In this document: in pieces, positions 8,127 to 46,608 of the stretch | Layout of the letters: each line of letters starts with the position of its first letter | How positions within the stretch are numbered: the first letter of the stretch is position 1 | From: Deltaproteobacteria bacterium | Lineage (GTDB): Bacteria > Myxococcota > Kuafuiibacteriia > Kuafuiibacteriales > Kuafuiibacteriaceae | Direction of reading: 5' to 3' | Assembly: GCA_040218735.1 (NCBI GenBank) | Contig: JAVJQW010000067.1 | Location: 160,001 to 224,000 of the forward strand | Length of the DNA stretch: 64,000 nt | Notes under the pieces: model-generated | Told to the model about the DNA's origin: nothing | Seen by the model: only the letters and a program-made list of their open reading frames with translations | Databases searched by the model: none | Program-made: the position numbers and the translations under genes

Positions 8127-9290
8127 ATGGACGAGATCACGGACTATCCGCGGCTCGCGAGTTTCTGCGACGGCGCGAACCCAGCGGGGATGAGCCGCGA
8201 GCAGATCTACGAAAACTGCGTAGATCTCTGGCAGGCGTTCTACCCGACGACCTCGATCCTGGTCGGACTCGGAATCCTCGCCGCCGTCTCACTGATCTAC
8301 ATGATCATCTTCCGCGTCGCGCGCGGCGACGCGACGGGGACGACGGTCGCGACGTGCTTCGAAGTCATCTTCTACGTCCCGGGCGCGGCCTACGCCGGAG
8401 CGTCGGGTGGGTTGTTGCTCGCCCAGCTCCTCCATCCCTTCGCGGCGGCCAGCCTCATCTTCCTCGCCGTCGCGGTCGCGCTGTTCATCATGGTGAAGGG
8501 TTTGATCGACGCCGCCTCGTCTTCGACCAGCGTCGGCGGCGGGTGGATCTTCCTCGGTATCGTGGAGATCGTCCTGGTCGCCGGAGCCCTGGCGGTCACG
8601 GCGGCCTTCGCGGCGGCGGTGAACGAGACCAACGCGGCCGCTGAGTACGAAACGTACTACCAGTGGATGTATTACACGTTCGGGGGCATCGCGGCGATCC
8701 ACGCGCTGTACATCACGAGTTACCGTTCGTTCCACGCCGGCATCGCGTGGCTACTCATCCCGCTGGGCGCGACTTGGGGGCTCATCGGGACACTCCTCGG
8801 GACGTTCCACCACATCGCTTCGAGCCGCTTCAAACCGAACCACGGACAGCCGGCCCATGGGTTGCGCAGCCTCTATACGAAGTACACCAGTGGGTTCAAT
8901 CTCAAGGGTTCGTTCGGCTTCACGCTGGGTTCGACGATGTTTCCCGGCGGCGTCGAAAAACACGAATCGATTCACGTCCTGCAGCACTTCGTGTTCGGGC
9001 CGAGCTTCGAGCTGACCTACATGCTGTGGGCGATCGTGTTCTTCATCCCCGCGCTGATCGCCTCCCCCATCGTTGGGTACGACGTCGGCAAGGGCATCGA
9101 GGCCTACTGCTACTACAACAACCCCTGGGAGACGATGGCCTACGCCGTCGACGGCGCCGGGAAACCGGTCTCGCGCAAGAAGATGATCTTCAACGATCAC
9201 CTGCGTTGGGCATTGGCGGTCATCTGGTGGCAAGCCGGTGCCATCGGGTTGGTCATCTTCGCACTGTTCCGCGCGAAAGCGTTCGGCTGA
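8127..9290 (+). CDS. Polytopic membrane protein with a HExxH zinc-metalloprotease-like motif
   Basis: Multiple hydrophobic helices. KHESIHVLQH followed by YYNNPWETMAY (HExxH…E arrangement). Confidence 0.7.
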   Translation: MDEITDYPRLASFCDGANPAGMSREQIYENCVDLWQAFYPTTSILVGLGILAAVSLIYMIIFRVARGDATGTTVATCFEVIFYVPGAAYAGASGGLLLAQLLHPFAAASLIFLAVAVALFIMVKGLIDAASSSTSVGGGWIFLGIVEIVLVAGALAVTAAFAAAVNETNAAAEYETYYQWMYYTFGGIAAIHALYITSYRSFHAGIAWLLIPLGATWGLIGTLLGTFHHIASSRFKPNHGQPAHGLRSLYTKYTSGFNLKGSFGFTLGSTMFPGGVEKHESIHVLQHFVFGPSFELTYMLWAIVFFIPALIASPIVGYDVGKGIEAYCYYNNPWETMAYAVDGAGKPVSRKKMIFNDHLRWALAVIWWQAGAIGLVIFALFRAKAFG

Positions 9291-9333
9291 GCCCGTTGCG
9301 AGGGGTTTCGGCAGCGGGTAGAACGAGCGCGAA

Positions 9334-10542
9334 ATGACCGCGAAGACCGTCGACGTCACCGTCGTTCCGGAGTCCATCGAAGTCGAAGTCGGATCGGCGC
9401 CCACCAAGGTCGCCTTCTCGGTCACCTACCAACACGACGAGCCGCTCGAGGCCCTCGTGAAGGTGCTCGGGAGTGACGGCTCGGTCGAATCGTGGGTCGA
9501 GCTCGAAGGCGCTCGCGAGCGCACGTTCACCAAGGACAGCACCACGCAAATCCTCGCGAACGTCTCCGTGCCGAGCAGCGCGAGCTCGGGTGAGTACAGC
9601 TTCAAGCTCGCGTTCGTCGGCGTGCGCAACCCAGACGAGGACTACACCGAGTCACCGTCGGTGCGCGTGAAAGCGCGGCAGCCCGCCGAGCGCCCGAGCA
9701 AACCGTTCCCGATCTGGATCCTCGCGCTCGTCGCGGTGCTCGTCATCGTGGTGGGTGTCGTCATCTTCTTCGTCGTGCGCGACACACGCGCCGGCATCCG
9801 CGAGTCCTGCGCCGACGGCGTGCAGTGCGCGGACGGCCTGACCTGCAACGACGAACAGATATGTCTGTTCGCCAACGGCGGGACCTGCGCCGACGGCAAC
9901 GACTGCCTCACCGGCTACTGCGGCGCCGAGGATCACGTCTGCGCCGACGAACCCGGACCGCCCGGCCTCGGCGAGGCGTGTGAATCGGAGTGCGCCGAGG
10001 GCCTCACGTGCGCGGACAAGAAGTGCCTCGGGACGCTCGGCTTCGCCTGCACGGCCAGCGAGGACTGCCACGAGATGGTTTGTGACAACAGCCAGTGCAG
10101 TCGCCTCGGGCAGAAGTGCACCAACGACGCGAGCTGCGGCGAGGCGCGCCTGATGTGCTCGTCACTCGGCACCGAGCGGCGCTGTCTCCTGAAGGAAGGC
10201 CAGCCCTGCCACGAGCTCGGCGCCGCCCTCTGCGACTCCCAACAGTGCAGCGGCGACAAGTGCGTCGCGCCGACGCGGTGCCGCAACAACACCCACTGCG
10301 AGAGCGACGAGAGCTGCGTCTCGGGCTTCTGTTACACGAAGCCGAACATGAGCTGCAGCGGCAACGACGTCTGCCTCCGCTTCATGTGCGTGGAAGGGAA
10401 GTGCCCGACCTATACGTGCACGACGGCCCGCAAGTGCCCGGCGACCTACGGCTGCTCCAACGGTCGCTGCGTCCGCCGCCGCGCGGTCAAGACGGACCTC
10501 CTCGAACGCCTGAAGCTGAAGAACTGGAAGGGCTCGCTCTGA
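9334..10542 (+). CDS. Bitopic membrane protein: N-terminal beta-sandwich-like domain, TM helix, C-terminal Cys-rich repeats
   Basis: No signal peptide. Beta-rich N-terminus, then KPFPIWILALVAVLVIVVGVVIFFVVR TM, then dozens of Cys in CxxxxxC repeats. Confidence 0.8.
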   Translation: MTAKTVDVTVVPESIEVEVGSAPTKVAFSVTYQHDEPLEALVKVLGSDGSVESWVELEGARERTFTKDSTTQILANVSVPSSASSGEYSFKLAFVGVRNPDEDYTESPSVRVKARQPAERPSKPFPIWILALVAVLVIVVGVVIFFVVRDTRAGIRESCADGVQCADGLTCNDEQICLFANGGTCADGNDCLTGYCGAEDHVCADEPGPPGLGEACESECAEGLTCADKKCLGTLGFACTASEDCHEMVCDNSQCSRLGQKCTNDASCGEARLMCSSLGTERRCLLKEGQPCHELGAALCDSQQCSGDKCVAPTRCRNNTHCESDESCVSGFCYTKPNMSCSGNDVCLRFMCVEGKCPTYTCTTARKCPATYGCSNGRCVRRRAVKTDLLERLKLKNWKGSL

Positions 10543-11342
10543 GCGGCGCGGCCGACCGGCTGCGTACGCCGTTCTACATCGCCGCGCTGGTGATCTTCGC
10601 CTTTGCGTGGCTCCTCGAGAGCGGCTCGGCCGCCGGCCTCTCTGCCTCCCCGCCCCAGGGCGGCGCGCTCTACACCTCACTGAAGGGGAGCGTGCAGAAG
10701 TACGCCGACGACCTCGACGAAGACGAGGTCGAGGAGGAGACGAAGAACGCCATCGCCACGCTCCGCGCCGCGGACCCGCCGCCGGGGTTGGCGATCAGCT
10801 ACCTCGGCGTGTTGGACCTGATGGTCCTCGCGACGATCTTCTTCATGGGCGCGGGGATGCTCTTCCGCTTCCGGTCGTGGGGCCGCGTGCAGGCGCTCGC
10901 GTCGCTGATCCTCGGCGTGTTGGTCCTGCTCGCGGGAATCGCCCTGCTCTTCAAGGCGATCGGGCTGCTATTCCTGATGGTCGGGCTGTTTCTCGCGACG
11001 CCCTTCGGGACCATCGCGTACATCGCGACCTACGGCTTCTTCCCCACCGGCACGGCCAAGGCGATCCTCGGCTCGGCGCTGTTCCTGAAGGTGATCGCGG
11101 GCGTCTGCCTCGTGCTCGCGCAGCAGCGGATGTTGAAGGCAAAGGCCCTCGTCGCGATCATCCTCTCGTCGCTGCTGGGTTCGGTCATCATCAGCTTCTT
11201 ACACGGCATCGTGCCGGGCTTCCTCGTGAGCATCACGGACGCGATCGCGGCGATCGTCGTCATCATCATCGCGCTGATCTGGGCGGTCCTCCTGATCGTC
11301 TTTGCGATCATCGGACTGGTGAAGGGCCTCTCTAGGGATTGA
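10539..11342 (+). CDS. Multi-pass membrane protein (about 6 TM); start codon uncertain, CTG proposed
   Basis: The protein-like part of ORF 10095..11342 begins at LSGAADRLRTPFYIAALVIF. Hydrophobic helices, PPGLAISYL and LFLATPFGTIAY motifs. Confidence 0.7.
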   Translation: MSGAADRLRTPFYIAALVIFAFAWLLESGSAAGLSASPPQGGALYTSLKGSVQKYADDLDEDEVEEETKNAIATLRAADPPPGLAISYLGVLDLMVLATIFFMGAGMLFRFRSWGRVQALASLILGVLVLLAGIALLFKAIGLLFLMVGLFLATPFGTIAYIATYGFFPTGTAKAILGSALFLKVIAGVCLVLAQQRMLKAKALVAIILSSLLGSVIISFLHGIVPGFLVSITDAIAAIVVIIIALIWAVLLIVFAIIGLVKGLSRD

Positions 11343-11724
11343 TGCGGATCTGGCAGGTGCCCGCCGGCGGCTTCAGCGTGAGCGTCGCCCCGGCCTCGGA
11401 CACGTAGACGTCCTTCGGTTTGGCGTCGAGCCGCACATCGTACGCGGTGCTCCCGTCGCTCGGTGCGAATCGGACGCGCTTCTTCTTGCAGGCCTTGTTG
11501 CCCACGAGCGTCGCGCGCGCGTAGCCGTCGCCCTTGGCGATGCGGCACACGGTCACCAGCGGATCACACCCGGAGCCGAGGCGACCTTCGTCGACGGGCG
11601 ACGACATCAGCGCCAGCAGGCGATCGCGCATCGCGGTCTCGTCGTCGTCGTCCGTGGGCCACGCCATGCCCACCACGAACAGCGCGACGAGCAGTACGAC
11701 CACCCCGAGCAGGACCCACTTCAC
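11332..11724 (-). CDS. Small protein with N-terminal TM/signal, last gene of the CIS operon
   Basis: MKWVLLGVVVLLVALFVVGMAW, then a four-Cys domain. GTGA overlap with the tail gene. Confidence 0.7.
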   Translation of the reverse strand: MKWVLLGVVVLLVALFVVGMAWPTDDDDETAMRDRLLALMSSPVDEGRLGSGCDPLVTVCRIAKGDGYARATLVGNKACKKKRVRFAPSDGSTAYDVRLDAKPKDVYVSEAGATLTLKPPAGTCQIRINP

Positions 11725-12203
11725 CGTTCGACCTCCACGACCTCGAACGTAGCGTACGCCGGCTTCTCGCGCGCGACGATGCGACGCACGCGCTCGACCT
11801 GTCCCGCCGCGGCGGTCGGCACCTCGACGACCAGGTGGAACGGCTGGTCCTCAGGCTCACGGACCACGAAGCCGCGGACGTCGGTCGCGACTTCGAGGTG
11901 CTGGACCAACGCCCACGCGGTGCCGCGGTAGCGCGACAACACCGCGGCGCGCGCGACGAGCGCACGGGTGGCCGCGGTGGACACACCGTCGTTCGGATCC
12001 ACGCCGACCCAGTACGCCAGCATGCGAACGAGGTCTTCGTCGGCGCGCTGCGGATCGAAGGCTTCGTCGAGGCGGTCGAGGGTCTCGACGGTCGGCGTGT
12101 GCATCGCGGACATCACGCCGACGAGGGTGTCGAGCGGGTCGTCACGCGAGGCTGCGCGACGAATGACGTCCGGCAGCAGCCGAAAGATCTCAGTCGGCGT
12201 CAT
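11721..12203 (-). CDS. CIS baseplate wedge protein, P2 gpI-like tail protein (Cis12-like)
   Basis: FRLLPDVIR, FDPQRADEDLVRMLAYWVG, YRGTAWAL, REKPAYATFEV. Lies directly downstream of the baseplate J gene. Confidence 0.75.
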   Translation of the reverse strand: MTPTEIFRLLPDVIRRAASRDDPLDTLVGVMSAMHTPTVETLDRLDEAFDPQRADEDLVRMLAYWVGVDPNDGVSTAATRALVARAAVLSRYRGTAWALVQHLEVATDVRGFVVREPEDQPFHLVVEVPTAAAGQVERVRRIVAREKPAYATFEVVEVER

Positions 12204-14775
12204 CGCGGCTCACCACGTCGATCTGATGTTCACCCGAGCAGAACAGCCACGTCGGCGGGAGGTGCACGATGTCAGCGTCCTCCAGGCTCGACGTCCACAC
12301 GAACGAGGTCCCCTCGTCGCGGCTTCGGTACACCCCGCGCTGCGCGCCCGCGAGGATCGTGCGACCACCCGCGGCCACCGCGTAGATCGGCTCGAAGAGG
12401 CGGTCCGCCGTCTCGAGCGCCAGCCCCGACTCCAGGCTCGGCGACTGCCACGCGACGTCGCGCCGACGTGCGTTCAGGCGGAGCACGCCGCCGCGGTACG
12501 TCCCGGCGACGACGGTCGCGGTCTCGGCGTCCTCACCGAGGAACGCGAGGGAGAGGCAGCTCCCGCCCGTCCACCCCGCGCCGAAGTGCACCCACCCCTC
12601 GGGGGCCATGCCTTCGCCGGTGAGCTCCCAGGCGTAGCAGCCCTCGCCGTCGTCGCGGCGACCGTGCGCGGCGAGGCCCGCCCACAGGAACGAGCGAGGA
12701 CCGTCGCGCTGGACGGCGAGCACCCGCACGTCCTTGTTCGCGAGGCCGATGTTGGTGAACGTCCCGGGGCGACCGGCGCGCACCGAGAGCAGCACGCCGC
12801 CAAGCTCGGTGCTCGCGACCGCGACCTTCACGTCCCCGCGGGTGTCCGTCACGCTCGAGACGGCCCAGAAGCCGGCGTCCGGTTGGCCCTCGACGACGAG
12901 CACCTGCAGCGGGACGGCGTCGCGCTCGGTGGTCACCTCGTACAGGCCCTCGTCGGTCGCGATGAGGAGCACCGGATCCCCGCCGCGCAGCGTCCACGCG
13001 AGATCGTTGGCGCGCGGCATCACCTGTCGTGATTCGCTGAACGTCTCACCCGCGTCGTGCGAGAAGCGAATCGTCGTCTGCTCGCCCTCGCGTACGCCGA
13101 CCGCGAGGAGGCCCGGCACCGTCTCGTGCCGAACGACGTGTTCGATCTTGGCGCCCTCGACGCGCTGGACGACCTCCCAGCTCGACGCGTCGTTCATCGT
13201 CCGGAACAGCGACACCCCGTCCGCCGCGAACCAAGTCCGCGGTTGCGCGGGATCACGCTCCACGACCTCCGTGTGCACCGGCGCCTCGTCGATCGCGAAC
13301 CGCACGTTGTCGACGTAGCTGACGCCCGGCTCCGCCAACACGATGCGCCACACGTGCGCGAGTCGGAGCGGCTCTCCGAACGCCCAGCCCGAGCCCTCAC
13401 CGTACGGGAGCGGGTTGATCGTCTCGTGCAGGCGCTGCGTCACACGGCGCTGCAGCGCGACGAGATCTTCGCCCGGGTGCGCGACCACGCGGGCCTGCAC
13501 CGCGACGCGTTTGTGCGGGGCCCACTTCACGTCGACGTGCGTCGCGAGCGGGCGGCGTGCGTCGAGCGCTTGTTTCACACGCACCCGGAGCTCTTCGCTC
13601 TGCTCCGCGAGCAGCGCGTCGTGGGTGACGGCCGACGGCGGCTGCGGCGGATCGCGTTCCTCGAGGTCCGGGACGAGCAAGACCTCCACCGTCCCCGCGC
13701 GGGCGTGTCGCCAGACCTCCGCGGCGGTCATCGCCTTGGCCCGCCGGATGTCGCGTGAGGTGCGGCGGACGATCGTCTCGAAGTCACCCGCCGTCACGGC
13801 GCGGTCGAGCGACCGCAGCTCGAGGGGGCCTCGCAGCAACGCGTTCTCGACGGGCTCACGCGTCCGTCCGCCGCGCGCGCGGGTTCGGTTGGTGACCTTC
13901 ACCGCAGCACCGCCGGGGAGCGGGTCCAGGAGGTCCGTCAGGACCCCCTCGGTCACGTTGCCGTCCGAGCCTCCGCCTCTCCAGTACCAGGCGCGTATCT
14001 CGCGCTCGAGCGGCGGGACGGCGGCGACGGGGTCTTCGCGGATCGCACCGTCCGCGGCGCGGCGCCCGACCGCCGGGGCGAACGTGACAAGGCCCGAGGC
14101 GCGGTCGAGGAGGAAGACGCGGTCCGTCGGTTCGACGTTCGCGAACGACCCCACCTCTCGGTAGAGCAGGAACGCCTTGTCGGAGAACTCACGCGCCGGG
14201 GCGCCGTCGAGGATCTCGGAGGGATCCGTCTCGACGCCGATGACGAACGGGAGCGCGTCGCTGCGTCCGACGATCGCGTCGTCGGCCACGCGCACCGCCT
14301 GGCCGGCTCGCCCCGTCCCCATCCCGACGAGGCGCCCGACCTCGTAGCTCGCGTGGTACGCGACGACATCGACGGCCAGCTCCCCCGCGGCGATGCGCGC
14401 GTCCTTCGCGACGGTGAAGATCAGCGGCTCTCCGCTCGATCCCCCCTCGGCCGTGATGCGTGTGCCGAGCGGAATGTCGACGGGGGTCTCCTGGGCGGCT
14501 TCGAGCGTGAAACGAACGAGCGTGTGCGCGGGCGTCGCGGCCCACCGCTGCACGCCGATGAGGTTGAGGAGCGCGACGTAGACCTTCTCGGGGATGCGGT
14601 TGAGTCGGTAGAGCGTCGTCTCCGTGAGGTGCGCGAACACCTCGACGAGGATCATCCCCGGGTCGTGCACCGAGAGGTCGGTCCACTCCGGGCAGCGCCG
14701 TTGAATCAGCGCGCGCGCCTCGCGGACGAGCTGCTCGAAGTCCCGGTCGTCGAGGTTGGGGGACGGGAGCGCCAT
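12190..14775 (-). CDS. CIS baseplate J-like protein (Afp11/Cis11) with an inserted BNR-type beta-propeller
   Basis: MALPSPNLDDRDFEQLV…CPEWTDLSVHDPGMILVE…YRLNRIP; GGGSDGNV; DRAVTAGDFE. C-terminal propeller repeats (FRTMNDASSWE, FSHDAGETF, YRSRDEGTSF). Confidence 0.9.
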   Translation of the reverse strand: MALPSPNLDDRDFEQLVREARALIQRRCPEWTDLSVHDPGMILVEVFAHLTETTLYRLNRIPEKVYVALLNLIGVQRWAATPAHTLVRFTLEAAQETPVDIPLGTRITAEGGSSGEPLIFTVAKDARIAAGELAVDVVAYHASYEVGRLVGMGTGRAGQAVRVADDAIVGRSDALPFVIGVETDPSEILDGAPAREFSDKAFLLYREVGSFANVEPTDRVFLLDRASGLVTFAPAVGRRAADGAIREDPVAAVPPLEREIRAWYWRGGGSDGNVTEGVLTDLLDPLPGGAAVKVTNRTRARGGRTREPVENALLRGPLELRSLDRAVTAGDFETIVRRTSRDIRRAKAMTAAEVWRHARAGTVEVLLVPDLEERDPPQPPSAVTHDALLAEQSEELRVRVKQALDARRPLATHVDVKWAPHKRVAVQARVVAHPGEDLVALQRRVTQRLHETINPLPYGEGSGWAFGEPLRLAHVWRIVLAEPGVSYVDNVRFAIDEAPVHTEVVERDPAQPRTWFAADGVSLFRTMNDASSWEVVQRVEGAKIEHVVRHETVPGLLAVGVREGEQTTIRFSHDAGETFSESRQVMPRANDLAWTLRGGDPVLLIATDEGLYEVTTERDAVPLQVLVVEGQPDAGFWAVSSVTDTRGDVKVAVASTELGGVLLSVRAGRPGTFTNIGLANKDVRVLAVQRDGPRSFLWAGLAAHGRRDDGEGCYAWELTGEGMAPEGWVHFGAGWTGGSCLSLAFLGEDAETATVVAGTYRGGVLRLNARRRDVAWQSPSLESGLALETADRLFEPIYAVAAGGRTILAGAQRGVYRSRDEGTSFVWTSSLEDADIVHLPPTWLFCSGEHQIDVVSRDDAD

Positions 14776-15233
14776 CAGCGTCGTTCTCCGAATAGAGCGA
14801 GCGTGTACATGAGCGTGTCGGTCTCCTGCGTGGGGCGGACGCGGTAGTCGAGGATGACGTGGAGCTCGCCGAGATCCTCCTGCGCGCCGCCGGCGTTCGT
14901 GGCGAGCGGGTCGGAGCGCGTCGCGTCGAGGCGGAGGATCTCCACCCGCGGCTCCCACCGCGTGATCGCCTCGCGCACGTAGTGCATCGCGAGCCCGGCG
15001 GTCGTGTCGTCGTTCGGCGCGTAGACGAGGCGCGACAAGTAGCAGCCGTAATGGGGTCGCATGACGCGCTCGCCGGGGAGCGTAGTGAGGAGGATCAGAA
15101 GGGCCTGGCGCACCGAGGCCTTGTCATCGACGAAGCGCAGCCGCCCGGTGCGATCCGCCGACAGCCCCATCTCCTGACGGCCCCGTGCGAAGTCGGGGTG
15201 CACGAGCTCGAGCGCGCGGAAGCGACGTTTCAT
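14775..15233 (-). CDS. CIS GPW/gp25-family baseplate protein (Afp9/Cis9)
   Basis: SVRQALLILLTTLPGERVMRPHYGC and AITRWEPRVEIL motifs. Confidence 0.9.
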   Translation of the reverse strand: MKRRFRALELVHPDFARGRQEMGLSADRTGRLRFVDDKASVRQALLILLTTLPGERVMRPHYGCYLSRLVYAPNDDTTAGLAMHYVREAITRWEPRVEILRLDATRSDPLATNAGGAQEDLGELHVILDYRVRPTQETDTLMYTLALFGERR

Positions 15234-15565
15234 GCGTCCGACCCCACGAAGTTCTGGCCGGGTGCCTCGACGAGGTACTCGGCCGGGAACAGGGTGCCGT
15301 CGGTGGAGCCGCGTAGGTTGTCGAGCACGATCGGCCGGCCGTCGATACGCACGAACGCGGAGTATCCGCGGCGCGCGACCAGGGTGAGCGTGCACGGTTT
15401 GTTCGGGGTCGCGACGGGGCAGCGCGAGATCGGGCGCTGCTCCGGGTCGGACCGTACGAGGACGCTGCGCCCCTCGATCGTCACCCAAGATTGGTGCGGA
15501 TCGATCCCCACCTCCCCGGTCGCGTGGGTGCAACGAATCGTGGCGTCTTCGGTGATGACCTTCAT
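15230..15565 (-). CDS. PAAR-like spike-tip protein (Cis10-like)
   Basis: 111 aa directly after the VgrG-like gene, with DATIRCTH, ISRCP, KPC and GQNFV. This Cys/His pattern resembles PAAR-like (DUF4280-type) proteins. Confidence 0.65.
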   Translation of the reverse strand: MKVITEDATIRCTHATGEVGIDPHQSWVTIEGRSVLVRSDPEQRPISRCPVATPNKPCTLTLVARRGYSAFVRIDGRPIVLDNLRGSTDGTLFPAEYLVEAPGQNFVGSDA

Positions 15566-15567
15566 GC

Positions 15568-17010: not shown

Positions 17011-17729
17011 GACTCGGACTCCCGAATCTCTTCGGCCGGCGGGACGACGATCTGGTAGCCCGCCTCCAGCGCGCCGGGATCGTCGAGGTCGTTGAGCGTC
17101 GCGAGGACGCGCCACCAGGACGGGTCACCGTAGTAGCGCGCGGCGATCTCGTCGAGGCGCTCGCCGGAGCCGTCGCCGGCGTCCTGGATCTCGTGGATGC
17201 GGACTTCACTCGAGGTGAGCGCCTCGGTGGAGGGGTTCGCTGGCGGTCGCGGCGTCGGTGCCTCGACGAGCTGCGGGACGTCGCGGACGAAGCGCATCGT
17301 CACCCACGACCGCGTCGGCACGCCCTCCGGGGTGAAGCGCTCCAGCCGCTCTGCGATCTCGACGATCACCCCCGGCACGTTCCACGCCTTGCCCCACACG
17401 AAGCGAACGAGCGGCGGTCGCCCGCGGCCCTGCTCGATGTCGATGTTCTCCGTGAGCGCCCACAGCGGCGCGGTGAGCGCGCGGACGTCCGGGCTGTCGA
17501 CGTTCGAACCTTCGATGCCGACGTCGAAGAGCAGCTCGAGGCGCAGCTCGGTGACGCCGCCGCCGGTGAAAAGGAGCGGGTCGTCGTTGCCGTCGGGGCG
17601 CGTGAGGTCGCCGCCGATCGAAGCGCGCTGCTTCACGCCCGCCCGGCGCCGGAACTCGACGGAGCTCGGGTTGAGGAGGCACGCGATGCGCCGATCGTTC
17701 TTGTCGATCAGGAAGCTCACCCGCTCCAT
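17007..17729 (-). CDS. CIS tube-initiator/LysM protein (Afp7/Cis7)
   Basis: LLNPSSV, LELLFD, PPLVRFVWG, ERFTPEGVP. C-terminal LysM-like GERLDEIAARYYGDPSWWRVLATLN. Confidence 0.9.
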   Translation of the reverse strand: MERVSFLIDKNDRRIACLLNPSSVEFRRRAGVKQRASIGGDLTRPDGNDDPLLFTGGGVTELRLELLFDVGIEGSNVDSPDVRALTAPLWALTENIDIEQGRGRPPLVRFVWGKAWNVPGVIVEIAERLERFTPEGVPTRSWVTMRFVRDVPQLVEAPTPRPPANPSTEALTSSEVRIHEIQDAGDGSGERLDEIAARYYGDPSWWRVLATLNDLDDPGALEAGYQIVVPPAEEIRESES

Positions 17730-19222
17730 GCGCGGCCCTCCTGTTCACGGCGTCGCGCGGCGTCGGTGGTGCGGGCCTCGAGCCGGGTGAGCGCGGCGTC
17801 GGGCTCGGGCGGGGCTTCGCGCAACGGGAGCCAGCCGTCGTTTGTGTCGTCACGCGCGCCCTCGGAGGGGAGCGCCGGCCACGGGGAGGCGGCGCCGCTG
17901 AGGTCGAGGGGCGCGTAGGACGGTCGGTCGGCGGACGGAGGCCCGTGGTCTTTCGGGTGGCGCGAAGCGTCGGACTGCGGCGTTGCGTCCGAGCCCGAAG
18001 CGTCGGCCCACGGGGCGCGGGCGACCGCGGTCGTCTTCACGCGCCGCGCCGACGCCTGGGACGCGGACGTCCCCGCTGCGTCGCGTTCGTCCGATCGCGG
18101 CTGGTCTCGTTCCCGCAGATATCGCGCCCGCTGGTCTCGTGCCCGCTGGTCTCGTCCGAGTCCGTCGCGTTCACGCCGTGCCGTCTCGGCGACCCGCGGA
18201 GATGTCACGCCGTCGTCGGCTCCGGGCCGGACGCGAGCGCCGAAGTCTCCGCGCGCGCTGCCGATCGGCTTCGCGTCGTCATCGCCGACAACCCGAGCGA
18301 GCGCCTCGTTCCGTGGCGGGCCCTCGATCGAGTCGCCGCGCGCGACGGGACGAGCCGTCGGACGCGACGCCAACGGCCCGTCGTCCGCAGCCACCGTGTC
18401 GCGCGACTCGGCCGGGGGAGCTTCGGTCGCCGGCGCGCCCGATTCAGCTCCACCGAGGGGCGACGCGTCGGTCCGGCGTTCTCGCCGCGCGCTCGGCGCG
18501 ATGGCCTCACCCGTCGGCGCGCCGCGGATGGGAGCTCGTGGTTCGGGGGCCACCTCGTCAGCGCGTGACGCCGCGCCCGAGCCCGGCGCGCGGCGCGGAA
18601 AACCGCGCAGCTCCGCCGGTGCGCCACCCGAACGGGCGTCGCCAAGGCCACCCCCGATGCCGACCCGTTCGGCACGCGACCCACGAGCCTTCACTTGTCC
18701 CGAGGTGACGCGGCCCGCCGCACCCGCGTCCTGCGGACCGTCCACCGCTGCGGACGTCCCAGGCCGCGCTTCGCCGCTCCCACGGCGCGATGCACCGCGC
18801 TCGCCGACGCGCGGAGCCTTCACACCACGGTCCGACACCAGCGGGTCTTCGGGTTCGAGCCCCCGCGCGACGCCCAGCACCAGCGCGACGGCCCGCGCCA
18901 ACACGCCGTCCGACGCGATGTTCGGCGCGAGGTCCGCGATGCGTTGCGCAACGCCGTCGGGCCCGTCGTCGGGCGCCGCTTCGACCCCGTCCGGCGCCGC
19001 CGGCATCCACTCCGTCGGGTCGAGCCCCGCCCGTTCGATCCGCGCGAGCCAATCCGCGGGCGGACCGGTCCGCGCCGCGACGTGCGCCGCCCAGTCCTCG
19101 GGCGTCGCGGGTCGCGGTGGCGGTGGGGGCGGCGCGGGTTCGCGGACGGCGCGCTCGGCGAGATCCGCCGTGCGGCGCGCGGCGCGCGCAACCCAACGCA
19201 GGGCTCGATCGCGACGGCTCAT
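17717..19222 (-). CDS. Low-complexity Ala/Pro/Arg-rich protein inside the CIS operon
   Basis: ATGA overlap with the tube gene and a short overlap with the LysM gene support a real gene. Appears largely disordered. Confidence 0.6.
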   Translation of the reverse strand: MSRRDRALRWVARAARRTADLAERAVREPAPPPPPPRPATPEDWAAHVAARTGPPADWLARIERAGLDPTEWMPAAPDGVEAAPDDGPDGVAQRIADLAPNIASDGVLARAVALVLGVARGLEPEDPLVSDRGVKAPRVGERGASRRGSGEARPGTSAAVDGPQDAGAAGRVTSGQVKARGSRAERVGIGGGLGDARSGGAPAELRGFPRRAPGSGAASRADEVAPEPRAPIRGAPTGEAIAPSARRERRTDASPLGGAESGAPATEAPPAESRDTVAADDGPLASRPTARPVARGDSIEGPPRNEALARVVGDDDAKPIGSARGDFGARVRPGADDGVTSPRVAETARRERDGLGRDQRARDQRARYLRERDQPRSDERDAAGTSASQASARRVKTTAVARAPWADASGSDATPQSDASRHPKDHGPPSADRPSYAPLDLSGAASPWPALPSEGARDDTNDGWLPLREAPPEPDAALTRLEARTTDAARRREQEGRAWSG

Positions 19223-19725
19223 CCGCGCACGAGTCGGTCACACACCAACGTGATCGATTCGATCGCGAGCTCGCTGCCGGTCGCGTCGAGCGGCGTCCCG
19301 CGCCACTCACGCGGCCACGCCGCGATCAGATCCCAGCGCATCACTTCGCCGGTGCCCGCCGTGTCGAGCAACACGATCGACACGTTGCGCTGGTACTCCG
19401 CCTTCGGTTTGCCGCTGACGACGTCCTGCAGCCAGGTCCACAGCGCCTGGTCGTCGGTCAGGCCGTACCGCAGCGTGACGTCGGAGTACGAGACCTGCCC
19501 CGCGAGGCGCGTGACGTCGGTCGTCCCGCCCTCCCGGAACTCGATCGCCTCCACGCTCACGCCGAGCCCCGCGCACTGGGTGAAGTGCCCGAGGACCTGC
19601 GTCGACTCCTGCTGCGTCAGCTTGAAGTTGTACGCGCGATAAGGATCGACCCAGGCGCCGGTGCCCCCGTCCTGTCCTTCTTCCGCGTTGCCTTCGGTGT
19701 TCGCTTCGTCGGCTCCACTGCTCAT
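19219..19725 (-). CDS. CIS inner tube protein (T4 gp19-like, Afp1/Cis1)
   Basis: DPYRAYNFKL, GHFTQCAGL, IEFREGG, VTLRYGLT, AWPREW, AIESITL. Confidence 0.93.
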   Translation of the reverse strand: MSSGADEANTEGNAEEGQDGGTGAWVDPYRAYNFKLTQQESTQVLGHFTQCAGLGVSVEAIEFREGGTTDVTRLAGQVSYSDVTLRYGLTDDQALWTWLQDVVSGKPKAEYQRNVSIVLLDTAGTGEVMRWDLIAAWPREWRGTPLDATGSELAIESITLVCDRLVRG

Positions 19726-19737
19726 ATCGCTGACTCC

Positions 19738-20934
19738 TTACCCCTCGCCGCCCGCGTCTTCGACCTCGGCGCCCGCCGCGGTCTGACCGATCCGGAAGAT
19801 GATGAACTCTGCCGGCTTCACCGGCGCCAGGCCGATCACCGTTACGACCTGCCCCGCGTCGATCACCTCGGGCGGGTTCGTCTCCTCGTCGCACTGCACG
19901 AAGAACGCTTGCTCCGGCGTCGCCCCGCGCAGCGCACCGTCGCGCCACAGCCGCATCAAGAACGCGGTAACGTCGCGGCGGATGCTCTTCCACAGCGACT
20001 GGTCGTTCGGCTCGAAGACCACCCACCGCGTGCTCTCGGCGATCGACTCTTCGATCATGTTGAAGAGGCGCCGCACGTTGATGTAGCGCCACTCACTCGC
20101 CGCCGGCGCGAGCGTCCGGCCGCCCCACACGCGAATGCCCTCGCGCGTGAAGAACCGAATGCAGTTCACGCCGTTGTCGTTGAGGATGCCCTGCTCTTCG
20201 CGCGACACGCGGTACGACAGCGACAACGCACCGCGTACGCCCTCGTTCGCCGGCGCCTTGTGCACGCCGCGCTCGCCGTCGCTGCGCGCGTAGATGCCGG
20301 CGACGTGACCGGACGGCGGCGTGAACACCACCTGCCGCGTCGTCGCGAGCGGGTCCCGCACGCCGACCCACGGGAAGTAGAACGCGCCGAAGCCCCGGTC
20401 GGAGTTGCGCGGTCGCAGGCCCCCCGCGGGCACAATCTCCGCGTCGTCGTCCGCCGGCGGAGCGCCTTCCGTGGCGACCTCGGTGAGCGCCCGCAGGTCC
20501 GGCACGTCGAGCGGCGCGTCGAGGATCGCCACACGATCCTCCAGGCGCTCGCAGTGCCCGAGGAGCGATTCGTAGGCCGCCGCCCCGGTCGCGCCCGGCG
20601 CCGCGACGATCGCGATCTCGTCGATCCGACCGAGCGCTTCGAGGCCGGCGTCGAGCCGATCGATCGCCCCGACGTTCACCACGTACAGGTTCTTGCCGCC
20701 GTTGAGGAAGAAGCCCCAGACCGCGCGCGACAGGTCCGTCCCGGTGCTCGACTCGGAGCAGAACAGCCGCTTGAAGTGCTGCCAGTTGTTGACGCGCACC
20801 GCTTCGTCCAAGCGGCGCCGCGGCTCGGGGGCCACGCCGACGAAGCCGGCGGTGCTCGTCCCGACCGCGACGATCGGACGTGAGCCGCCGGAGATCTCTT
20901 CGACGTAGACGCCGGGGGTCGAGTAGTTCAGCAC
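19738..20934 (-). CDS. CIS contractile sheath protein (Afp2-4/Cis2)
   Basis: TPGVYVEE, GFFLNGG, PPSGHVAGIYARSD, GVHKAPAN, WGGRTL, WRYINVRR, WVVFEPND, APVKPAEFIIFR. Confidence 0.95.
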   Translation of the reverse strand: MLNYSTPGVYVEEISGGSRPIVAVGTSTAGFVGVAPEPRRRLDEAVRVNNWQHFKRLFCSESSTGTDLSRAVWGFFLNGGKNLYVVNVGAIDRLDAGLEALGRIDEIAIVAAPGATGAAAYESLLGHCERLEDRVAILDAPLDVPDLRALTEVATEGAPPADDDAEIVPAGGLRPRNSDRGFGAFYFPWVGVRDPLATTRQVVFTPPSGHVAGIYARSDGERGVHKAPANEGVRGALSLSYRVSREEQGILNDNGVNCIRFFTREGIRVWGGRTLAPAASEWRYINVRRLFNMIEESIAESTRWVVFEPNDQSLWKSIRRDVTAFLMRLWRDGALRGATPEQAFFVQCDEETNPPEVIDAGQVVTVIGLAPVKPAEFIIFRIGQTAAGAEVEDAGGEG

Positions 20935-20935
20935 G

Positions 20936-21613
20936 TCATTCCTCCAGTTCGAACTGCACCCGCACCGGCTCGCGGCCGTCTGCGGGGGTCAAGGCGAGCT
21001 TCTGCGTGCGGCCCTTCGCCGTCACGACCAGCTCGAAGGATTGGTCGGCGGGCACCGCGTCGAAGCGGAACCGCCCTCTCGGATCGGCGCGGGCCGTCAG
21101 GTTCAGCGTCGGGATCGACGCGACCGCCCCGGCCAGCGGAATCGACTCGGGCCCCTGCACGACGCCGCGCAACACTCGCGTCGTCGTCAACGCGACGCGC
21201 AGCGGCGTGCGCACGAGCTTCGCCGGGTGAATCGCGCGCGCCTTCGTCGCGAGGAGCGACAGGCTGAACGCGGGACGCGGACGACAGCCGAACGCCGACC
21301 ACTGATCGAGCGCGATCGGATCGTAGTCGATCGTCGCGTCTTCGTGATCGAGCGCGGCCTCCAACACCTGCGACAGCAGCTCGTGCGCGCGGCGGGTCTG
21401 CTCCGCCCAGGTCGTCACGAGGTACCGGCCCCTAAACGCGACCGGCGGGCGGTTCGGGCCCCGCATCGGCTTCTGCTCGTCGAACCCGAGCAGCGCGAGC
21501 GAGACGCCCTCCCCGGCCAGGTCGTCCGACGGGGCGTCGAGCGTCACGGCGACATTGCCGCGCACGACCTCCTGCACCCACGCGACGATCTGGTCGTCGA
21601 GCTCGACGATCAT
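20936..21613 (-). CDS. Pvc16/Afp16-like tail-terminator (cap) protein with C-terminal carboxypeptidase-regulatory-like domain
   Basis: Position ahead of the sheath gene. Motifs GVSLALL, RYLVTTW, QWSAFGCRPRPAFSL and C-terminal ARADPRGRFRFDAVP. ATG at 21613. Confidence 0.7.
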   Translation of the reverse strand: MIVELDDQIVAWVQEVVRGNVAVTLDAPSDDLAGEGVSLALLGFDEQKPMRGPNRPPVAFRGRYLVTTWAEQTRRAHELLSQVLEAALDHEDATIDYDPIALDQWSAFGCRPRPAFSLSLLATKARAIHPAKLVRTPLRVALTTTRVLRGVVQGPESIPLAGAVASIPTLNLTARADPRGRFRFDAVPADQSFELVVTAKGRTQKLALTPADGREPVRVQFELEE

Positions 21614-22791
21614 CGACGCCTCCAGGCGAGCAGCCCGAGCACCAGCCAGGCGACTCCGCTCCCGCTCCCCGTCCGCGACGTCGAGCAACCACAGCCGTCG
21701 TCCTTCGGCGCCTCCGTCGAGCCCGTCGAACCGGTGGGACCGCGCGCCGCGGTCTGCGTGCCGGCGTCCCGGTTCTCGATGCTGGCCTCCACGTCCGGCT
21801 CCTCGAACAGCTCCAGCTTCAGGCGATACGGCCCCGAGCGCTCGACGTCGGAGCGATCCGTCCACGTGTCGGTGACGAGGTAGTAGGTCCCGGCGTCGAG
21901 CACGACGTTCAGCGACTTGTCCGCGCGCTTCACACACGCCTCCGCCTTCGGGGCGGAGAGGACGTGGAGGTCCACGTCGACGAACTTCGGGACCTCGACC
22001 GAAGCGAGCAGCCGGCTCTTCTTCGGGACCGCGAACCGATACACGTACTCCTTACCACTCTCGTCCGCGTGCGCTTTGCAGCTGTAGCTGTCGAAGGTGT
22101 CGCTGCACGCGAGGAACATCGAGCGCTGCTCTTCGAACGGGAACGACGACACCACGATCGGCTTCGCGACCGTCCCCTCACACGCCGGCGGCCCCGCCTG
22201 GATGTGTTTGTAACGCACGGGCCGGTAGCCGTTCAGGTACGACCAGCTCGCGTGGTGATGCAGCCGTACGCGCCCCGGCCCTCCGGCCGCTTCGTAGAAG
22301 ATCGGCACGCCGTCGTTTCGCGTCCCGGCGAACAGGACGACGTGGTTGCCCGCCTTGTTGAGCGCGTCCCCCGCCTCGAGGTCCTCGAAGTCGATCGTCT
22401 CGGTCACCTGGTGCAGCGTCGATGTGGAGTATTTCTTCGACGTCCCCCACGCGAGCGACACGAGCCCCGAGCAGTCCACGCCCGCGACGCACTTCAGGAC
22501 GCCGTGTTTCTTGTGCGAGCCCGCGCCGTGTCCGCGGCCGATCTTGTCGACGAAAGCCTCGACCTCGTCGTAGCCGCCCCACTTGTACGGCATCCCGCGG
22601 TGGCTGCCGGGTTGGTAGTCACTCTTGTACGACGACGGGCACGTGCAGCCGGTGCAGTCGCTCGATTCGAGGTCCCACTCCAGGTCGACGAACCGATCGA
22701 CACGCTCCAGGACCTGCTTGCGCGACAGCGGCTCCGCGTTTGCGACGCACGGGACCGCGAGCAGCACGGCGAGGACCTCAAGGCGCCGCAT
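21610..22791 (-). CDS. NlpC/P60-like Cys hydrolase with PPC-like domain and MYXO-CTERM anchor
   Basis: Signal peptide. GMPYKWGG, GVDCSGLVSLAWG, GDALNKAGNHVVLF. LDAGTYYLVTD (PPC-like). C-terminal GCGCSTS…WLVLGLLAWRRR. Confidence 0.8.
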   Translation of the reverse strand: MRRLEVLAVLLAVPCVANAEPLSRKQVLERVDRFVDLEWDLESSDCTGCTCPSSYKSDYQPGSHRGMPYKWGGYDEVEAFVDKIGRGHGAGSHKKHGVLKCVAGVDCSGLVSLAWGTSKKYSTSTLHQVTETIDFEDLEAGDALNKAGNHVVLFAGTRNDGVPIFYEAAGGPGRVRLHHHASWSYLNGYRPVRYKHIQAGPPACEGTVAKPIVVSSFPFEEQRSMFLACSDTFDSYSCKAHADESGKEYVYRFAVPKKSRLLASVEVPKFVDVDLHVLSAPKAEACVKRADKSLNVVLDAGTYYLVTDTWTDRSDVERSGPYRLKLELFEEPDVEASIENRDAGTQTAARGPTGSTGSTEAPKDDGCGCSTSRTGSGSGVAWLVLGLLAWRRR

Positions 22792-23797
22792 ACTTCAGCA
22801 CCTTCACGCGATCGACGTACGGCAACATGACGAACACGTTGCCGTCCTCGTCGATGTCGATGTCCTTGTCCGGGATGAGCACGTCGTCGACCGGGAGCTC
22901 GAACGTGCGCAGCGGTTTCAGATCCTTGTCGAGCACGCGCACGAAGCGCCGCACCGCGATCGCGCCGTCCTTCATCGACACCATCTCGATGCGCACGAAC
23001 GTGCGCTTCTTCTTGTCGGTCGACAGGTGCGTCACGGACGCCAGCTTCCCGGGCGCGGGCGGGCTGATCTCGATCTCCTTCGTCGGCTGGTTCCGTGCGC
23101 CGGCGAAGCTCCTCAGAGACGCCGTGCCGCGCTTCATCACGACTTCGGTCGACCCGGAGCGCGTCGCCGTGCGGCGGTGCGCCATCCGCGTCAGCTTGAG
23201 CCGCTGCGGCGGCGGAGGCGGCGGCGCGACGTGGGTCATCGGCCCGATCAGCGATCGCGCACGTCGGGGCAGCGTGCGTTTGTCGATCTCGTAGCTTCCG
23301 TCCTGCTCCTCGACGACGACCCGCCCGCTCGCGATCCGGCGCAGCCCCTTGAATCGCTTCAGCCGGTTCGCGAGCAAGCGCTCCACGCCGCCACGGTCAT
23401 CGACCATCCACAGCTGCGCGTCCTTCGCGTCGAACAGGACCACGCGCCCGTCACCGACGTGCGCCGCGTCCGAGACAGTGCGCGCGATCGGCAGCTTCGA
23501 ACGGCGCACGATGCGTTTGTTGTTCAGGACGACGGCGCGGTCCTTTTCACCGTCGACGATCAGCACCTCGCCCTTCGGCATCGCGATGATCGCCGAAGGC
23601 CCGCGCGCCCGCTCTTCGTTGCGTCCGGCGTGCACCCCGAGCGCGTCGTCGGCGTTACCGGTCGGAATCTCGGCGACGACCTGCTGCCGCCACGGCGCGC
23701 GAATCAGGCGCATGTTGGTGGGCGGTATCTGCGCCCACGCCTGGCCGCCGAGCATCACGCCCAGCAGCGCGACACACCCCGTCCTCACCCAACCCAC
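22778..23797 (-). CDS. Secreted protein, probable beta-propeller
   Basis: Signal peptide ending AWA-Q. GPSAI…GEVLIVDG and DIDIDEDGNVFV (NHL-like). 14-nt overlap with the NlpC/P60 gene. Confidence 0.65.
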   Translation of the reverse strand: MGWVRTGCVALLGVMLGGQAWAQIPPTNMRLIRAPWRQQVVAEIPTGNADDALGVHAGRNEERARGPSAIIAMPKGEVLIVDGEKDRAVVLNNKRIVRRSKLPIARTVSDAAHVGDGRVVLFDAKDAQLWMVDDRGGVERLLANRLKRFKGLRRIASGRVVVEEQDGSYEIDKRTLPRRARSLIGPMTHVAPPPPPPQRLKLTRMAHRRTATRSGSTEVVMKRGTASLRSFAGARNQPTKEIEISPPAPGKLASVTHLSTDKKKRTFVRIEMVSMKDGAIAVRRFVRVLDKDLKPLRTFELPVDDVLIPDKDIDIDEDGNVFVMLPYVDRVKVLKYAAP

Positions 23798-23889
23798 CGC
23801 GGGGAGTTCGTAACACGGGGCCTGAATCTGACAAAGATGGCCGGGCCCGATCGCGCGCCCGTGTCATCGGCCGCGACGAACGTGAACGA

Positions 23890-27023: not shown

Positions 27024-27088
27024 CCGGCGCGTCGAGCGTCCGCGGTCACAGCGCGAATCCCCGCGCGCCGAGCCGCGTCGATCGATCC

Positions 27089-46602: not shown

Positions 46603-46608
46603 CTCTTC

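Follow-up and report, generated by a model that had tools for sequence, protein, structure and literature searches.

A lineage of contractile injection systems that combines a conserved membrane module with the apparent loss of the Afp15-type ATPase, described from a myxobacterial locus

The closest described relatives of the contractile injection system (CIS) analyzed here are the cytoplasmic CIS of Streptomyces, which have been assigned to subtype IId, carry no fibres and act in the cytoplasm (PMC12237407; PMC10066040). CisA, a bitopic protein encoded after the wedge genes, is described in PMC12237407 as required for firing, and IId clusters have been published as lacking a recognised tape measure (PMC12237407; PMC10066040). 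The gene-content criteria listed for IId in PMC6899500 are a single afp11, a contiguous afp8, the presence of afp10 and the absence of afp12, afp13 and afp14. In this study, we analyzed a stretch of 64,000 nucleotides from a member of the Myxococcota (assembly GCA_040218735.1, contig JAVJQW010000067.1, positions 160,001 to 224,000; the whole stretch is called the window, and positions are counted from its first letter), in which an eleven-gene CIS operon at 11332-21613 meets three membrane protein genes, here called mem1, mem2 and mem3. With one Streptomyces clavuligerus locus and PDB E-values as the outside references, sequence comparison places this CIS in a distinct lineage, with the cytoplasmic CIS of subtype IId from Streptomyces and Roseiflexus as its sister. 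Members of the lineage are marked by a short sheath, a baseplate J with a beta-propeller, a Tail_P2_I wedge protein, a disordered protein and a membrane module, and they have neither ATPase nor fibre.

Several other published systems bear on this locus. A membrane-bound CIS of haloarchaea correlates with a conserved gene for a protein with six transmembrane (TM) helices (PMC11566945). Genes for fibres follow that of Tail_P2_I, the protein to which the fibres are predicted to bind (PMC12923769). The Afp15-type ATPase has been called universal for extracellular CIS (eCIS) regions (preprint 10.1101/2022.08.10.503483), and PMC6899500 counts Afp15 among eight subunit types encoded by >85% of eCIS loci. 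Cytoplasmic CIS whose fibre slot encodes a bitopic adaptor (Streptomyces) and membrane-bound CIS marked by a polytopic gene (haloarchaea) are therefore known already, and what is new is a multi-phylum lineage that combines ATPase loss, a baseplate J that bears a propeller, a conserved disordered protein encoded at the position of a tape measure and a fixed membrane module. No description of this lineage or its membrane module was found in the literature, and the supplementary eCIS catalogues of Chen 2019, Geller 2021 and Nachmias 2026 may list some of the loci.

Because the DNA has a G+C content of 65-74%, reading frames were picked by third-position G+C. A total of 40 window proteins were scanned for families, a set that does not cover every small open reading frame (ORF), and the genome itself is 96.5% complete. 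A sheath match at E<=1e-100 was obtained in 40 genomes, this one included, from a sample of 401 Myxococcota genomes; the 40 belong to three families, with 55-70% identity over the aligned stretch. The window genes were compared by tblastn with 21 related Myxococcota loci. In a species collection with one genome per species, 328 stretches encode a relative of mem3, and the best 80 of these 328 were examined, which come from Chloroflexota, Acidobacteriota, Actinomycetota, Pseudomonadota, Planctomycetota and Myxococcota.

The operon comprises eleven minus-strand genes, running from 21613 down to 11332, whose neighbours overlap by 1-14 nt or lie no more than 12 nt apart. An earlier note, made from the letters of this DNA, had given the gene list, the gene order and the tight coupling, and all three agree with the ORFs and the Pfam matches. 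The first gene encodes the cap or tail terminator (225 aa, 20936-21613), in which a Pvc16_N-like N-terminal part (24.3 bits, cut-off 27; 22.2 bits in the genome scan) is joined to a carboxypeptidase-regulatory-like C-terminal domain (CarboxypepD_reg, 29.7 bits, cut-off 32.3), both matches lying just under the cut-off. Its best PDB match is the Pvc16 N-terminal domain protein 9gts_0A (E 0.013), and of the 21 related Myxococcota loci, 17 have the cap gene ahead of the sheath gene. The short sheath (398 aa, 19738-20934; Phage_sheath_1C 77.6 bits, Phage_sheath_1 51.5 bits) matches the Streptomyces CIS sheath best in the PDB (8bky/9gtp, E 3.6e-103; Pvc2, 4.9e-52), and full-length orthologues share 55-66% identity with it in other Myxococcota and 62% on a Deinococcus plasmid. 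It is followed by the inner tube (168 aa, 19219-19725; Phage_T4_gp19 111.6 bits), the disordered protein (501 aa, 17717-19222) and an Afp7/Cis7-like tube initiator (240 aa, 17007-17729; CIS_tube PF19266 50.5 bits), whose C-terminus looks LysM-like by eye only, LysM not being reported by Pfam, and which is 30.6% identical to the product of an S. clavuligerus gene annotated as a LysM-domain protein.

The VgrG/gpD spike is encoded by one contiguous gene (481 aa, 15568-17013; Phage_base_V 62.6 bits, Phage_GPD 21.7 bits and below cut-off), and no toxin extension was recognised in it. The next product, a PAAR-like tip protein (111 aa, 15230-15565), reached only E 0.035 and 14.8 bits with PAAR_motif and found no match in a PDB search; it is kept at the same position, with 38-58% identity, in all complete loci. 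A gp25/TssE-like sheath initiator (152 aa, 14775-15233; GPW_gp25 78.1 bits) precedes the Cis11/TssF-like baseplate J (861 aa, 12190-14775; Baseplate_J 66.4 bits, TIGR02243 208 bits), which matches PDB 9gtp_1K at E 3.1e-61. In its AF2 model (mean pLDDT 74.9), for which 9gtp Cis11 is the best Foldseek match (E 1.7e-23), residues ~500-856 are predicted to form a C-terminal beta-propeller resembling the GH74 type (AF2 plus Foldseek, E ~1e-10). Of 61 related loci, 60 encode the C-terminal extension; S. clavuligerus baseplate J does not have it, and the alignment with that protein ends at residue 493. The Cis12/TssG-like Tail_P2_I wedge protein (160 aa, 11721-12203; Tail_P2_I 49 bits) matches PDB 9gtp_E (E 6e-8), with pyocin Tri2 PA0619 a faint second (E 0.15), and the small bitopic protein discussed below completes the operon.

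The CIS_tube, sheath, tube, gp25, baseplate J and VgrG families, the last through Phage_base_V, all score above the Pfam cut-off and are encoded together, which places the locus, for these six core parts, in the eCIS superfamily of Chen et al. 2019. By tblastn the full series from cap to wedge is kept in 18 of the 21 Myxococcota loci; in one further locus, from the window's own family, only the wedge-gene match went undetected, and the other two are remnants with cap, sheath and tube only. Judged by its genes, the locus encodes a complete CIS.

Streptomyces coelicolor CIS-Sc (8bky, 9gtp, 9gts) is the nearest solved relative of the sheath, baseplate J, wedge protein and cap, and the Streptomyces cytoplasmic CIS is among the systems with which the locus had been compared from the letters. 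Both systems have one contiguous VgrG and a single baseplate J, both are without Afp12/13 fibre genes and without a recognisable Afp14, and both encode a bitopic protein whose N-terminus faces the cytoplasm, found after the wedge genes. The CIS-Sc wedge consists of two Cis11 and one Cis12, and the window has homologues of both. Of the IId features, the closest sequence and fold relationship points to IId, and the single afp11, contiguous afp8, afp10 and absence of afp12, afp13 and afp14 are all found here, the PAAR match being weak and a conserved protein occupying the Afp14 slot. The differences are as clear. The sheath here lacks an inserted domain (398 aa vs 534), baseplate J bears the extra beta-propeller, and the fibre-slot protein has a folded N-domain of PapD/MSP-like type, whereas CisA has a long disordered N-terminus. 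An Afp15-type ATPase is encoded in Streptomyces (sco4259) and in the S. clavuligerus locus but not here. That S. clavuligerus IId locus has a DUF4255 cap, a long sheath and an ATPase with 48% identity to the Afp15-like AAA domain of our genome; mem2, mem3 and the small bitopic protein were not found in it, and its own fibre-slot protein (584 aa) is matched by no window protein. A tree of baseplate J with 72 rows and no outgroup groups the sequences largely by phylum and puts the window on a long branch.

With Afp, PVC and the R-type pyocins the locus shares sheath, tube, gp25, baseplate J, VgrG, PAAR and cap, and with pyocin R2 a wedge protein of the Tail_P2_I type. Unlike these systems, it is without fibres, an Afp15 ATPase, a lysis cassette or any toxin cargo that could be recognised, and membrane proteins stand in the fibre slot. 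No fibre, capsid, terminase, integrase or toxin family was found among the 40 window proteins scanned, as the earlier note had said of the capsid, terminase, integrase and fibre, and the set of tape measure, fibres, lysis cassette, capsid, terminase and integrase by which a prophage or R-type tailocin would be known is likewise not found among them. No complete locus has a fibre gene after the wedge gene, and each has a gene for a TM protein there instead.

The absence of an AAA+ ATPase, also claimed from the letters, holds for the whole contig, on which a profile scan found no PF00004 AAA domain; the Afp15-type AAA+ ATPase expected of eCIS is accordingly missing at the locus. Elsewhere in the genome, a different contig encodes three Afp15-like ATPases in the vicinity of two further CIS loci. 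Used as a query, an Afp15-like protein of this genome gave 0 matches in 102 related loci, and no Afp15-like gene was found on the Deinococcus plasmid. In five genomes that hold only this sheath type at E<=1e-40, the Afp15-like query matched nothing but the AAA domain, at 30-38% identity; the two longest of these matches are FtsH orthologues, and the shorter ones were not followed up. Beyond such generic AAA matches, an Afp15-type ATPase was found in none of the five (5/5). A dedicated ATPase of the Afp15/ClpV type therefore appears to be absent from the lineage.

The two further CIS loci of this genome lie on contig C9, at ~515-550 kb and 583-606 kb, and each comprises a pair of tube genes, long sheaths and a complete Pvc16_N cap.

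These results bear on the simplest reading of the locus, an ordinary released eCIS that leaves the cell by lysis, with fibre, ATPase and cargo genes encoded elsewhere or too divergent to be seen, and with the membrane genes serving release in the manner of holins and spanins or being unrelated. The gene inventory, which by prediction includes all structural parts of a free particle, would suit such a system, as would a possible cell-wall hydrolase at the start of the operon and the two further CIS loci, whose Afp15-like ATPases might act in trans. Yet no such ATPase was found in the five genomes with only this CIS type, the position after the wedge gene is never held by a fibre gene in complete loci, no endolysin is conserved across loci, the hydrolase-like gene is unique to this genome, and monoderm phyla, in which a spanin would have no function, carry this membrane module too. 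The nearest characterised relatives, moreover, are reported to act in the cytoplasm (PMC10066040; PMC12998442). We consider a released eCIS improbable, and the holin/spanin reading of the membrane genes was rejected on the two grounds of the missing conserved endolysin and the presence of the module in monoderms.

A tape measure had also been listed as missing, and here the earlier claim has to be revised. The disordered protein encoded between tube and initiator has an N-terminal (amphipathic) helix, a middle part of variable length rich in Pro, Ala, Arg and Gly, and a C-terminal WP.LP ... EQ.G motif, often with a GPP.HW motif in the loci examined; Pfam and NCBIfam scans gave no match. Its gene overlaps the neighbouring genes at both start and stop. 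The same gap is filled by an ORF of 280-501 aa in 20 of 20 Myxococcota loci, with the N- and C-terminal motifs in most, by an ORF of 189-516 aa in 12 loci of other phyla, most with the same C-terminal motif, and by an unannotated frame of 343 aa on the Deinococcus plasmid. Recurrence at this position across loci marks the protein as a real, conserved family. Its position is, by the gene order of P2-like tails, the one at which a tape measure is encoded, and the "missing" tape measure is probably not missing.

A similar long frame, rich in Pro and Ala, stands in the tape-measure slot of the S. clavuligerus IId locus. On plasmid NZ_CP065235.1, at positions 19928-24079 of the locus, a continuous open frame (1383 codons, with much Pro, Ala, Gly and Thr) occupies the stretch without annotation that separates the tube genes from the second tube/LysM genes, the same slot as that of the disordered protein; high-GC DNA can yield long frames of this kind by chance.

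The three plus-strand membrane genes (mem1, 8127-9290; mem2, 9334-10542; mem3, ~10539-11342) converge on the operon, as had been noticed from the letters, and in the window they form an operon of their own on the opposite strand. The third, mem3, encodes a polytopic protein of ~265 aa with 6-7 TM helices by hydropathy and conserved PFGT and SITD motifs, for which no Pfam or NCBIfam family was found; an ESM Atlas look-up returned unnamed "integral membrane protein" clusters (0.90-0.91, low recognition), which is a lead only. A mem3 profile found one copy each in 37 of the 401 Myxococcota genomes, and the distribution is sharp: 37 of the 40 genomes with this sheath have mem3 and 0 of the 361 without it, two of the three exceptions being remnant loci. 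Among the best 80 mem3 loci of the species collection, 63 have one or more CIS core genes of this type no farther than 10 kb away, tblastn shows mem2 in 57, and the mem3 proteins remain 36-53% identical across phyla. Within the 21 Myxococcota loci tblastn found mem2 in 19 and mem3 in 16. The check proposed in the earlier note, co-occurrence and synteny of the mem2 and mem3 families with the CIS, has therefore come out in favour of the membrane genes, which by this distribution are true companions of the CIS, with mem3 serving as a marker of the lineage.

The arrangement is seen most plainly on the Deinococcus plasmid, where the order is cap, sheath, tube, 343-aa frame, initiator, VgrG, PAAR-like protein, gp25, baseplate J and wedge, followed by a mem1-like gene, a mem2 annotated "PASTA domain", the small bitopic protein and then a convergent mem3. 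The same module is found in Actinomycetota, Chloroflexota and Deinococcus, in monoderms and diderms alike.

The product of mem2 (402 aa) is bitopic, with a beta-sandwich at residues 6-115, a TM helix at 127-150 and a Cys-rich ectodomain. Its AF2 model (pLDDT 79.9, above 90 in the N-domain) shows small Cys-rich modules in the C-terminal part, and Foldseek matches the N-domain to PapD-like pilus chaperones and to MSP/VAP domains (E ~3e-6). As the protein has no signal peptide and carries ~40 cysteines in its C-terminal part, the N-domain is likely cytoplasmic and the rest outside the membrane. A profile of the N-domain found it in 59 of the 61 loci that hold both a wedge gene and mem3. In 15 of 18 loci the wedge stop overlaps the mem2 start by 1 nt, which puts mem2 normally in the fibre slot of phages and eCIS. 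The ectodomains differ, with PASTA in 10 of 15 database matches and PAN in one; in Actinomycetota, Chloroflexia and Deinococcus the same N-domain and a juxtamembrane KKPFPWW are followed by PASTA and other ectodomains. A complex prediction for the wedge protein with the mem2 N-domain scored far below its mark (0.01 against 0.32), with controls not run, and counts as evidence neither way.

As published, Sco4256-4258 of Streptomyces resemble mem2 in architecture, with a PapD-like domain first, then one TM helix and then a C-terminal domain that varies, and likewise in occurring almost exclusively with CIS and often as several paralogues. Those proteins are read as effectors or as a putative toxin, found in purified particles and toxic in Escherichia coli (PMC10066040; preprint 10.1101/2022.08.10.503483), and the preprint 10.1101/2022.08.10.503483 describes the Sco4256 family as rarely occurring outside CIS loci. 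Because of this match, "anchor" is only one of two readings of mem2. The other takes the system as a free cytoplasmic CIS that fires in its producer for regulated cell death without stable docking, in which the bitopic proteins would be ejected, membrane-active effectors, and the polytopic and small bitopic proteins would serve immunity, insertion or handling. Besides the match of mem2 to the family description (preprint 10.1101/2022.08.10.503483; PMC10066040), paralogues with different ectodomains in 26 of 65 loci, which carry 2-5 copies of N-domain genes, fit effectors, and the conserved set contained no other product recognised as candidate cargo. Against this, mem2 sits in the fibre slot, coupled to the wedge gene, where S. 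coelicolor has CisA; the conservation of mem3 across phyla suits a mechanical part better than an immunity protein; and PASTA, Cys-rich and PAN ectodomains, unlike the ricin/lectin domains of Sco4256-4258, look like binders or sensors and not like toxins. Homology of mem2 to Sco4256 is unproven, since the mem2 N-domain profile found no match in the one S. clavuligerus IId locus compared (best E 0.1), and none of 15 database matches to mem2, from a word-limited search, named Streptomyces. The effector reading is in our view a serious contender that is nevertheless unlikely.

The last operon gene encodes the small bitopic protein (130 aa, 11332-11724, minus strand), with an N-terminal TM helix at residues 3-21 by hydropathy and a domain of ~105 aa. 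In 17 loci the gene after mem2 encodes a protein of ~160 aa that has a TM helix at its N-terminus; a profile of these 17 Myxococcota homologues gives the 130-aa protein as its top match among 23 window proteins, though a weak one (E 3.4e-4, 11 bits), and matches on the Deinococcus plasmid at E 1e-10. The family as a whole travels with the CIS as the earlier note had proposed to check, being found in 49 of 61 loci of other species, but the window protein itself is matched only at the weak level just given, and tblastn with it found nothing in the 21 Myxococcota loci. It is probably the counterpart of the ~160-aa protein encoded after the bitopic adaptor. The product of mem1 (387 aa, plus strand) is polytopic, with ~6 TM helices by hydropathy and a conserved HExxH, and has no family in Pfam or NCBIfam scans. 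Its homologues adjoin the wedge gene or mem2 in 7 of the 80 loci, with HExxH kept in 7 of 7 and in the window, and on the Deinococcus plasmid the wedge gene is immediately followed by a mem1-like gene; tblastn did not find mem1 in the 21 Myxococcota loci. Its pattern is that of an occasional member of the module, and the conserved HExxH hints at a membrane-embedded metallopeptidase in some versions of it.

A novel complex replacing TssJLM in a diderm had been proposed from the letters, and this idea found no support, for Actinomycetota, Chloroflexota and Deinococcus carry the same module and different families share no conserved outer-membrane part. The related possibility of a contact-dependent weapon similar to a type VI secretion system (T6SS), in which the membrane module together with outer-membrane partners of the diderm would form an envelope-spanning conduit into a neighbour or prey, has some support: the membrane module is conserved, a membrane-bound precedent exists in haloarchaea (PMC11566945), the T6SS sheath VipB (PF05943) was not found in the 96.5%-complete genome, so that the T6SS niche is free, and genes for a barrel-like protein and a lipoprotein lie beside the cap gene in 13-14 of 20 loci. 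But those two genes are absent from this genome and from two other families, the module does not differ between monoderms and diderms, there is no ClpV-like recycling ATPase, and no effector-immunity pairs were recognised. The locus also does not fall in T6SS subtypes i-iii, VipB being absent from the genome and AAA from the contig; TssJ, TssL and TssM were not searched by profile. We regard a T6SS-like weapon as very improbable.

The haloarchaeal CIS, or archaeal T6SS, whose putative six-TM anchor is Hbor_38620, resembles the present system in being phage-tail-like and in having, within its cluster, a single polytopic membrane gene that is conserved. Its CIS clade is a different one, it includes an ATPase gene, and Hbor_38620, compared by description only, contains a cytoplasmic domain of ~150 residues that mem3 lacks.

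The loci with these two genes beside the cap gene belong nearly all to one Myxococcota family, in which the genes adjoin the cap gene and diverge from it within 1-4 kb beyond. The first encodes a protein of ~210 aa, with an N-terminus resembling a signal peptide and Phe as its C-terminal residue, which by eye may be an outer-membrane barrel, and the second a lipoprotein of ~183 aa; a ~430-aa protein with two central TM helices is encoded near the CIS in 12 loci. An envelope complex of these three products was set aside, as none of the three genes was found in this genome or in two other Myxococcota families. A gene like that of FAD-linked oxidases, named by eye, also lies beside the CIS in that family, and since it looks like a housekeeping gene, the barrel and lipoprotein genes may be mere neighbours and the shared neighbourhood inherited, not functional.

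Taken together, the analysis favours a membrane-docked, inside-acting CIS with the bitopic protein as a transmembrane stand-in for the fibre as the best explanation of the locus, to which we give somewhat better than an even chance; the mode itself is plausible. The particle would assemble in the cytoplasm, where its baseplate periphery, the propeller and/or the wedge protein, may be caught by the cytoplasmic N-domain of mem2. Serving in place of a tail fibre, mem2 would tie the baseplate to the membrane as CisA is thought to do, so that the particle would sit on and fire at the cytoplasmic membrane. In VAP proteins, an MSP domain of similar kind serves to hold partners at a membrane. Without an ATPase, firing would be a single event without recycling; the variable ectodomain could set where or when the particle fires, and mem3 and the small bitopic protein may complete a docking or passage site. 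Firing may kill the producer, as in Streptomyces, or reach a neighbour.

Several observations weigh against membrane docking. The docking is read from genes, with localisation and binding being predicted. Sco4256-4258, with the same published architecture as mem2, are taken for effectors, and 2-5 bitopic copies per locus fit cargo or fibre sets as well as anchors. In 17 of the 80 mem3 loci no CIS core gene was found, most being cut by a contig end on the expected side by coordinates; one of them, L079, has ~10 kb on either side of mem3 and still no CIS core gene. In the window mem1-mem2-mem3 are inverted, and their coupling to the wedge gene is consequently lost. Where its homologues start (M-D-R/K-L-R-K-P-F), mem3 has no ATG, GTG or TTG here; a CTG at 10539 overlaps the preceding stop, and the next canonical start, a GTG at 10590, would cut into the first TM helix. 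Finally, the two other CIS loci of the genome have ATPases that could act in trans.

A more specific version may be put forward tentatively, as a possibility we think less probable than not by some distance. The mem2 protein would be an "inside-out" fibre, whose N-domain holds the baseplate while the ectodomain reads the cell wall or the surroundings, so that a signal from outside would trigger single-shot firing independent of an ATPase, with mem3 serving docking or passage and the disordered protein (189-516 aa) acting as a non-helical tape measure that sets length. If this were true, the system could drive developmental autolysis or prey killing in myxobacteria.

The region set out in the earlier note is 8127-23797, but its top 2.2 kb (21610-23797) are not CIS and encode two secreted proteins, translationally coupled upstream of the cap gene. 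The first (393 aa, 21610-22791, minus strand) had been called an NlpC/P60 MYXO-CTERM protein heading the system. Its MYXO-CTERM tail is confirmed at residues 365-393 (TIGR03901, 21.4 bits, cut-off 20), but the match to PF00877 NLPC_P60 at residues 66-157 stays below threshold (14.1 bits, cut-off 23, E 0.048), its Cys/His motif is seen by eye only, and a PDB search found no relative. The second (339 aa, 22778-23797, minus strand) has a signal-peptide-like N-terminus by eye and no Pfam or NCBIfam family, and it heads the operon in this genome only. Homologues of neither were found by tblastn in any of the 21 related loci (21/21), which indicates that both are not conserved parts of the system.

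Farther out, paralogous secreted or lipoprotein genes with G-x-x-G-T-I/L ... W repeats flank the region at 6061-6993 (plus strand) and 25962-27023 (plus strand); their products look beta-propeller-like by eye and have no Pfam family. Just upstream of the operon are encoded a lipoprotein with VWA and bacterial TSP3 repeats at 23890-25812 (minus strand) and a CHAP/NlpC_P60-like protein at 27020-27703 (plus strand; 27 and 25.8 bits), while 27986-29323 codes for an FHA-domain sigma-54 activator. These three genes were not found beside related loci, except for a sigma-54-activator-like match in one remnant locus. The window also holds genes for enolase, GlpX, RecG and an H+-pyrophosphatase and, at 43126-48431, PilY1-like and PilW-like type IV pilus genes, which put the CIS locus in ordinary chromosomal surroundings. 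DNA nearly identical to 12190-21613, over half or more of the sampled words, occurs in sponge and biofloc metagenome contigs; these come from two studies other than the likely source sample and give a hint of habitat only. None of the data sets listed as matching this stretch was of RNA.

The lineage without an ATPase is represented in species genomes by 328 loci, which come from Myxococcota, Chloroflexota, Acidobacteriota, Actinomycetota, Pseudomonadota and Planctomycetota, together with a Deinococcus plasmid. Since the whole lineage appears to lack an ATPase, assembly, loading and firing must be possible without one. Screens that demand an ATPase or a fibre may miss such loci, and profiles of mem3 and of the mem2 N-domain are sharp markers for finding and classifying them. 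The conserved disordered protein in the tape-measure slot offers a simple handle on length control. CisA is confined to actinomycetes, and Roseiflexus is without a close cisA homologue; on the question of how cytoplasmic CIS make contact with the membrane, the lineage described here offers a conserved membrane module of three to four genes with a clear candidate adaptor. Its carriers include cultured and partly tractable hosts, such as Archangium, Corallococcus, Myxococcus, Pyxidicoccus, Catellatospora and Deinococcus, among them Archangium gephyra, Corallococcus terminator, Myxococcus eversor, Catellatospora vulcania and Deinococcus sp. AJ005, in which the question of membrane contact is directly testable.

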